A stretch of DNA of 64,000 nt from Styela clava (lineage: Eukaryota): the NCBI RefSeq assembly GCF_964204865.1, contig NC_135251.1, forward strand, positions 14,632,001 through 14,696,000. Direction: 5' to 3'. Every line of letters begins with the position of its first letter. Position 1 is the first letter of the stretch. The notes under the pieces are model-generated. The model did not search any database and was not told the origin of the DNA. It saw only the letters and a program-made list of their open reading frames with translations. Shown here in pieces: positions 33,673 to 35,290 of this stretch. Position numbers and translations under genes: made by a program.

Positions 33673-35290
33673 ATGAGGATTACACCTGTTGTGCTTCTTT
33701 ATTGCTGCATAATAGCAAGTAAGTTGTATGTCATATTATCTATTGCATTTCAGTTGGAACAAATCAAACTTTTTTAATTGTTGTTTTGTTACTTTTCTAT
33801 GGAATGCAATATGAATAAAACATTTCAGATGCTCTACAGTTTGAAGAATTTGACTACAAGAAAGATTTTGATGAAAATCTCGAGAAAGAATATCTTCGAA
33901 ATTTTCTGGATGAAAAAAATATTGAAGCGGAGATTGACACCGATTTTGAAGACGACGCAGACTTTGAACCAGACTTTTCTGAAGCCATATTCGAGGATGA
34001 TTTTGAGCATGATTATGAAAAAAAACTGACGGTTTGTACAACATAATATATAGCCTCAAAGACAGCACCCCCAATTCATGACTATATTTTCCGAAAATAC
34101 CAATTTGTGAAATTTTCTGTTGCATGGAAGTGCTCCAAATTCTATGCACAATTTCACGAAGTTATGCGATTATTTGTTTGTTAGCCCTACTAAGCGGAAA
34201 AGCATAGAGTACATTCTGAAGTTTTCCTTTATTTCAAGCTTCGATTTTTAAAATATTAAGAAATATAATATATCTTAAATTAAAATTGTACTTTTTAATC
34301 ACATTGGTCACACGTTTTTTTTAGAAACGGAATCTTGCTTTTTGTAAAAAGTTCAAGTTATGTGAGAAAGACGGAAATGGGTTCAAAATTGGATGTGCTG
34401 GGTTTAAGAATAATTATAAGCACAGAAAAAATTCATTCCGTGGTGTCTGGAGTAAGTTTAAGTACAAATTTCAAATAAACATTGTCTGCAGGTTATTGAA
34501 AATTATTAAAATTAGCGAGATCCAATTTTCGCTTGCAACCATTTTAAACGATGAAAAGTGAGAAGTGTGCTTTAGATATATCGTTGAACAGTACAGTTAT
34601 ATCCAAATGATATAATTAGGTCTACTGGACGAGCCAAATTGCGAACGGTCAGATTGAATACTATTATAGTAACACAAGTTCAATAAACGGCAACAGTTCA
34701 GCCCAATAACATTGTCTGTATATCCTCTATGTGTTTGTACTTTGTAAGTCCATAACCGGAAAGATTCCCTTTCTTTCATAAATAGCATACAGCTATAATC
34801 AGTTTCTCGCTGCCTAGATTGCAATGAATGTGCTAAACGCCTCATAATAAATTAAATTATATTGAAACAACTATAAATATTCTAGATTGTTGAAAATTGA
34901 GTTTTCCACTTTTCCGTCACTTTTTGAAATATTTTGAAAAATTAAAGTTAATCCATTTCAAGGCTTTTTTTATCAGCTTAATCGCAAATTCCAATATTTC
35001 GCATTGCTTCTCATCCGTTTTTTTTTTCTTACTTGTTTTATTCAAAGTGCCAATAACCTTTCTACGTCCTGGTAACGAGAAAAATCTGAAAATCAAAACC
35101 AATACTTGATATTTATAGATGTTATTTATCGGTGAAAAATTATTGTTGACGCGGTGGTCACTGATGTATACCAGAAGTATAAAATTTACAACTTTTTTGT
35201 ACAGAGAGAAGAGCTGGAAGGTGGTGCGTCAATTGCCAAGAGATGTGCAAAGGGGTTACAAGGGGTCCTCATTTACTTCTTGATTACTGA
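33673..35290 (+). CDS. Secreted prepropeptide, 153 aa: signal peptide, acidic propiece, KR site, cationic six-cysteine mature peptide (putative antimicrobial peptide or toxin)
   Basis: Exons 33673-33718 (MRITPVVLLYCCIIA, GTAAGT donor), 33829-34031 (D/E-rich), 34325-34451 (KRNLAFCKKFKLC...GVW, GTAAGT donor), 35205-35290 (KRRAGRWCVNCQEMCKG...DY*). All phases are compatible; ATTAAA directly after the stop. Confidence 0.8.

Follow-up and report, generated by a model that had tools for sequence, protein, structure and literature searches.

A spliced four-exon gene in Styela clava and its multi-copy family of candidate six-cysteine defence prepropeptides

Does a piece of Styela clava DNA that was passed over by the track of open reading frames (ORFs) hold a real gene, and what would that gene make? 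The question was raised by an original prediction, made from the letters alone, which placed a hidden four-exon gene for a cysteine-stabilised host-defence peptide or toxin precursor at positions 33,673 to 35,290 of a 64,000-nucleotide (nt) stretch of contig NC_135251.1 (positions 14,632,001 to 14,696,000); this whole stretch is called the window below. The gene is real and spliced in S. clava. New here are a family with at least 13 genomic places, a layout of charge and cysteine (Cys) residues kept in all seven intact copies, and the mosaic nature of the window copy. Judged from its sequences, the family is on balance probably a lineage-restricted set of secreted host-defence prepropeptides, with predicted release of a cationic six-Cys peptide acting on microbes.

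Sequencing contigs of 13 runs held part of the stretch; nine runs were guessed to be RNA and four were unlabelled, and none was recorded as RNA. Splicing was checked in six of the nine RNA-like runs (three studies), with the unlabelled run X10 as a DNA-like control. The four exons were predicted to join in phase, with good splice sites, into 153 amino acids (aa), and translation and the joints in the RNA-like runs bore this out. The gene was organized as follows:

33673..33718, + strand: exon 1, coding part; has the start codon and encodes the hydrophobic leader (mean hydropathy of its 9-residue core, 3.2)
33719..33828, + strand: intron 1; 110 nt, phase 1, GT..AG; joint in runs X1, X2, X3 and X5
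33829..34031, + strand: exon 2; acidic and Phe-rich (27 D/E, 7 K/R, 9 Phe), predicted disordered
34032..34324, + strand: intron 2; 293 nt, phase 0, GT..AG; joint in runs X2, X3, X4, X5 and X7
34325..34451, + strand: exon 3; Cys 1-3 (C-x5-C-x10-C) in the N-terminal half of the cationic domain, opened by KR in the window copy
34452..35204, + strand: intron 3; 753 nt, phase 1, GT..AG; joint in all six RNA-like runs
35205..35290, + strand: exon 4, coding part; Cys 4-6 (C-x2-C-x3-C) on a helix predicted to be long, followed by a variable tail and the stop codon
35291..36056, + strand: 3' untranslated region; AATAAA at 35439 and 36048; RNA-like contigs (X5) extend to 36056, which is not necessarily the true end

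The residue counts of the prediction were exact, both for the acidic exon 2 and for the 68-aa piece after KR (16 K/R, 4 D/E, Cys spacing 5,10,25,2,3). The leader, approximately residues 1-17 (exon 1 and the first bases of exon 2), is likely a signal peptide, as judged by hydropathy. The protein was identical to NCBI XP_077966232.1 (LOC144419899, uncharacterized, S. clava). Because NCBI already models the identical protein, the gene was hidden only in the sense that it is absent from the ORF track.

The predicted junctions appeared as spliced joints in the RNA-like runs (joint 1 in four of six, joint 2 in five and joint 3 in six), and no intron joint was found in X10, though X10 covers 30 of 30 bins. 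In X1-X3, bins within introns 1 and 2 had a depth of 0, and those within intron 3 did not exceed 2.4. In a 384-nt contig (X7, record 26), exon 4 was joined to an exon 3 with 0 differences; a second RNA-like contig (record 29) also carried exon 3 with 0 differences. Since exon 3 of the paralogues differs from that of the window copy by at least 10%, the window copy itself is spliced. Joint 1 was indistinguishable from that of paralogue A1 (about 96% identical there), so its counts may include A1 transcripts.

Three further signals were met in the same contigs. A non-canonical joint, GG..AT (side 29), at 33676-33831 in X2 and X4 probably comes from a paralogue contig. A loose end at 33644 suggested an upstream exon; it was rejected, as it is the 5' region of paralogue C1 (C13:12564712). 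This 5' region was found in RNA-like contigs of X2 and X4, and C1 is therefore likely transcribed too. A lone exon 4 at 37524 was rejected as an alternative last exon, with cover 0 and joints 0 in four of four runs, which does not prove it silent.

The family census was based on searches of the species' own genome and on exon mapping, and its counts are lower bounds. At least 13 genomic places were found, with seven intact genes, four broken copies and two lone last exons:

Intact: W (the window copy); A1-A3 at C2:16.63-16.65 Mb; B3 at C2:26.29 Mb; copies C1 and C2 at C13:12.56-12.57 Mb
Broken, B1: stop in exon 1
Broken, B2: stop in exon 2; exon 4 not found
Broken, B4: exon 2 donor lacking; stop and frameshift in exon 3
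Broken, B5, C2:26301547-26302913: 5' part lacking
Lone last exons: 37524 in the window; C2:16.196 Mb

All seven intact copies had intron phases 1, 0 and 1 and the predicted order of leader, acidic piece and cationic six-Cys piece. The leader was hydrophobic in each (9-residue hydropathy 3.2-3.6; nine database proteins examined), exon 2 had a net charge of -15 to -24, exons 3 and 4 together had a net charge of +5 to +14, and the charge switch lay at the exon 2/3 boundary. Their Cys pattern was C-x5-C-x10-C-x(16-25)-C-x2-C-x3-C, and the six Cys were invariant in eight of eight aligned database proteins. In the seven intact copies this layout was kept down to 43% identity. The proposed processing site fared less well: KR stands at the start of exon 3 in W and A1 alone, two of the seven intact copies, so KR is not a family feature as a convertase site. 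A terminal Gly, which is an amidation signal, was present in three of the seven intact copies and not in the window copy. Tyr25 and Tyr37 in exon 2, with acidic surroundings, were invariant in eight of eight aligned proteins; Tyr in an acidic context is typical of tyrosine sulfation. A kappa-B-like upstream site was rejected as a family feature, as it occurred in one of 10 copies, equal to the chance rate of the window.

Comparison of the copies showed that W is a mosaic. From the upstream region through intron 2 it was 92-98% like A1, and the second part of exon 3 was 94% like A2 vs 85% like A1. For the window protein NCBI has just one record, which has no counterpart among the earlier-version records. 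The exon 3+4 part of the full-length record P0004 matched B5, which is 5'-truncated in this genome. Individuals may differ in which copies they carry.

The family had not been recognized in the original prediction, and no known family was matched by Pfam, PDB sequence, profile or word-based searches. Pfam assigned 0 families to the three exon pieces and gave only three weak, unrelated matches among six proteins; the PDB sequence search gave 0 matches. No relatives outside S. clava were found in a profile search of 1.84 billion representatives or in word-based searches, and two profile matches (P0008 and P0009) were dropped as spurious, being long repetitive sequences. Restriction to S. clava is provisional, because the searched collections may cover other ascidians poorly. 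The Protein Atlas gave no usable match for exon 3 or the Cys domain, which proves neither absence nor novelty. No publication on the family was found in a literature searched mostly without subscription journals, and six gene ids led to 0 papers. The gene is thus apparently annotated but uncharacterized, and the family undescribed. By its sequence it would stand outside every known family tested, though built like a defence prepropeptide.

Two AlphaFold runs (six and eight aligned sequences) agreed on a helix at residues 84-92, a hairpin at 98-103, a helix at 107-113 and a long helix that starts at 122 and ends at 143-145. Of the two models, the better one gave residues 91-140 a predicted local distance difference test (pLDDT) score of about 70-82, and residues 1-82 a score below 50. 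The model was mostly helical with one short hairpin (pLDDT about 70-82), and it would place Cys 4-6 at i, i+3 and i+7 on one helix face. Foldseek gave no match at E<=0.001 for the two models. VIA-align gave a best Z of 4.2, with none at or above 5 among 48,161 chains, and a second look gave a best Z of 3.5. Because the Cys domain was not folded alone, these searches do not establish a new fold.

Rates of change were estimated in sets of seven and six copies. Omega, the ratio of nonsynonymous to synonymous change, was 1.14 (seven copies) and 1.30 (six copies) in the Cys core, and 0.58 and 0.75 in the pro-piece. Site models M1a and M2a were compared in both sets with an implementation of our own; in the Cys core M2a was favoured (p=0.008 for seven copies, p=0.024 for six), with about 48% of core sites falling in a class whose omega was about 2.5-2.7. 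Omega of the pro-piece was not clearly below 1 (p=0.055 and 0.35), and the pro-piece takes insertions and deletions freely (58-70 aa). Divergence of exons 3/4 exceeded that of exon 2 in 15 of 15 pairs (five at p<0.05), the pairs being non-independent. Five earlier-version records, assigned as alleles by best match, showed amino-acid differences at 12 of the 272 sites in the part between exon 3 and Cys 6 (both included) vs three of 406 in the leader and pro-piece (Fisher p=0.002), without a synonymous control. The sharp contrast between pro-piece and Cys domain in the W-A1 pair is due to mosaicism, as intron 3 diverges there as much as exon 3. A fair reading of these sequences is that the Cys frame is held and that the residues between the Cys would evolve at roughly the neutral rate or above it.

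Tandem duplication and the faster-changing Cys domain fit a defence effector, and the tandem clusters include broken copies. The steps of such a system can be proposed as follows. The leader would route the protein into the secretory path. During storage the acidic piece, predicted to be disordered, would mask the domain of +5 to +14 charge; sea-urchin antimicrobial peptides are described as having anionic pro-pieces that neutralise them (PMC10608444). Cleavage by a protease would follow close to the border of exons 2 and 3, at a site other than a conserved dibasic pair. Three disulfides would tie the short helix and hairpin to the long C-terminal helix, copies ending in Gly would be amidated, and the released peptide would bind anionic microbial surfaces. 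The domain would have diversified by tandem duplication, exchange between copies and gene loss. In its most specific form, this proposal describes a new ascidian antimicrobial peptide family with a disulfide-tied helix-hairpin-helix scaffold, diversified by inter-copy exchange and by gene gain and loss between individuals; we regard this form as possible rather than probable.

Several results weigh against the defence reading. Core omega was not different from 1 (p=0.60), the pro-piece passed the site test too (p=0.02 and 0.003), and mosaic copies or recombination can inflate the site test and give false positives. Divergence of exons 3/4 exceeded that of the flanking introns at p<0.05 in only two of 15 pairs. 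Only two intact copies keep the KR site, and in the window copy basic pairs also occur within the Cys domain itself (residues 126-128). The domain is hydrophilic, with a grand average of hydropathy (GRAVY) of -0.4 to -0.8, and the most divergent copy carries only +4 to +7. The pro-piece of 58-70 aa is long beside the 15-30 aa of anionic sea-urchin antimicrobial pro-pieces (PMC10608444), and synthetic peptides of the mussel family MgCRP-I, which has the same layout, were without significant activity as antimicrobial, antifungal, insecticidal or cytotoxic agents (PMC4558851).

The strongest alternative, though it appears unlikely, is a secreted and processed effector that is not antimicrobial, such as a ligand of receptors or channels directed at foulers, parasites or predators, or a modulator of immunity. 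Venom peptides show the same layout and evolution, and the hydrophilic Cys domain speaks for such an effector. The high positive charge of most copies is more typical of antimicrobial peptides and speaks against it, as does the lack of a match to any toxin family or fold in Pfam, PDB sequence and fold searches; the toxin label of the original prediction gained no specific support. MgCRP-I, with the same layout and evolution and inactive on microbes, lies on the side of the non-antimicrobial effector (PMC4558851).

The family is species-restricted, multi-copy and fast-changing, as reproductive proteins often are, and it is improbable, though conceivable, that it makes a gamete-surface, seminal or egg-coat protein which evolves fast for that reason. 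Transcripts in six of six RNA-like runs from three studies argue against this weakly, the runs being without tissue labels. Hydra periculin is expressed in female germline precursors (PMC10945409), so defence and reproduction can overlap.

The pro-piece and the cleavage site raise the reading, to which we give little credence, that the protein is secreted uncut and either serves in tunic or mucus as a component with an acidic and a basic part or binds metal ions through the acidic piece. No cleavage site is conserved, the acidic piece is long and better conserved, with invariant Tyr25, Tyr37 and Phe positions, and the whole protein is net -5 to -11 in full-length records. Against an uncut protein, all seven intact copies change from acidic to basic exactly where exons 2 and 3 meet, and the acidic piece tolerates insertions and deletions, with omega not clearly below 1. 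A peptide hormone or neuropeptide precursor is very improbable: the leader, pro-piece, basic residues and terminal Gly of the family are also prohormone features, but no Pfam or PDB sequence match was found, and the Cys domain is less conserved than the pro-piece, whereas hormones are usually most conserved in the mature part. The defence prepropeptide remains the preferred reading.

The surroundings of the gene in the window were surveyed with Pfam on 73 of 102 window ORFs (15499-61400). No obvious immune gene was present among the Pfam-matched neighbours. Downstream, the 3' part of the gene is repeated in a tandem copy (37158-38316 and 38722-39379) with about 81% identity to the original. 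The features were as follows:

37524..37600, + strand: lone exon 4 duplicate without the sixth Cys, inside the tandem copy, which spans intron 3, exon 4 and the 3' region
15.5 kb: Nop16
22.2 kb: collagen repeat
23.2 kb: hAT dimerisation domain
26.6 kb: PH domain
50948-52330: 460-aa ORF with SRP40_C
54.5-61.4 kb: TPR/APC3-like pieces

A high-copy element at 38303-38730 was inserted in the duplicated 3' segment; contigs of four of four runs pile up on it, with loose ends at both borders, as for a short interspersed nuclear element (SINE) or miniature inverted-repeat transposable element (MITE) common in transcripts. The gene was flanked by an inverted pair (29578-32049 / 44245-46678) of about 2.5 kb and 92% identity, likely two transposon copies. 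A direct repeat (8213-9277 / 40721-41789) was 1.1 kb long and 84% identical.

The group of the ascidians comprises the closest invertebrate relatives of vertebrates, and if the defence reading is true, an expressed seven-member Cys-rich family would extend the innate immune toolkit of ascidians. The family would also offer a natural variant series on one unmatched scaffold. Among known peptides, defensins (alpha, beta, CS-alpha-beta and big) have a C-terminal CC or CxC motif; the domain here had no CC or CxC and no defensin match in Pfam or PDB sequence searches. The ShKT domain (aurelin, anemone toxins) ends in C-x3-C-x2-C, and the terminal spacing here is x2 then x3, with no ShK Pfam match.

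Saposin-like proteins (NK-lysin and amoebapore group) also have six Cys and are helical, with C-x2-C first and C-x5-C last, an order reversed relative to the family. The first motif resembled the C-x5-C signature found at the C terminus of saposins (p 0.002-0.04 per copy, in a comparison picked post hoc). With motif scoring from the genome's own saposin domains, the narrower scoring gave p<0.05 for the first motif in one of seven copies, and a second scoring in seven of seven for the first motif and in none of seven for the second. The second motif gave p 0.44-0.88 and the profile match a probability of 1.3%, and the saposin/swaposin link is unproven. Ac-SLP-1 (3s64_A) aligned over 67 residues (Z 3.9, root-mean-square deviation 3.7), tied with unrelated rows. 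The family proteins had no SapB_1 or SapB_2 match in Pfam, and genome SapB searches listed none of the family's loci. These searches showed 22 SapB_2 matches on one strand over about 52 kb (C14:10718193-10769682), a prosaposin-like gene or cluster; vertebrate prosaposin has four saposin domains, far fewer than 22.

The antimicrobial peptides of S. clava in reviews are linear helices, and none is named as cysteine-stabilised in the accessible parts of those reviews (PMC10817596, PMC10608444). Clavanins and styelins come from the same species, are haemocyte antimicrobial peptides (PMC10817596) and occur in several clustered copies; they are linear and helical (PMC10608444), whereas the family here has six Cys. 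Two clavanin and seven styelin exon matches were located in three places (C1:10.54-10.57 Mb and C10:16.31-16.34 Mb), on contigs other than those of the family. None of six family proteins matched PF05452 or PF17562 (clavanin/styelin) in Pfam, and shared sequence with these loci was rejected, with no tblastn match and one 19-nt match.

Turgencins A and B of Synoicum turgens are likewise ascidian and cationic, with six non-adjacent Cys, a C-x2-C-x3-C end and a helical tendency (PMC7024374; also treated in PMC7432809). The turgencin paper describes them as the first Cys-rich ascidian antimicrobial peptides, and its accessible sections record that gene cloning failed and report no gene or precursor (PMC7024374). 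The prediction had limited the likeness to C-x2-C-x3-C, correctly: turgencin spacing is 3,4,8,2,3 and 3,4,7,2,3 vs 5,10,16-25,2,3 here, so only the last two gaps agree, and turgencins have 35-36 aa vs 49-77 aa here (PMC7024374). The turgencin motifs CXMAC and KKXGG were absent from the family alignments. Turgencins are amidated and have disulfides 1-6, 2-5 and 3-4 (PMC7024374). Terminal Gly occurs here in the three copies noted above. Turgencin B and copy C1 have a short motif in common, L-C-x2-C-Q-x2-C-K (by eye). Another group, St-CRPs, has 18-19 aa and is neutral (PMC13208793).

The Hydra antimicrobial families periculin, arminin and HyCWR combine a signal peptide, charge split, Cys pattern, clustered paralogues and lineage restriction (PMC10945409), a feature set that matches that of the S. 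clava family, with the leader here judged by hydropathy. Like the family, HyCWR has six Cys and no conventional cleavage site (PMC10945409). Hydra belongs to a different phylum and no sequence match surfaced in profile or word-based searches, so the likeness is analogy, not homology. MgCRP-I of Mytilus likewise has a conserved pre-pro part, a hypervariable mature part, six invariant Cys and duplication, and is genus-restricted; its peptides are short with a C-C-CC-C-C array (PMC4558851), whereas the domain here has no adjacent Cys. If the S. clava peptides prove inactive, the family would be, like MgCRP-I, one that is secreted and evolves fast for no explained reason.
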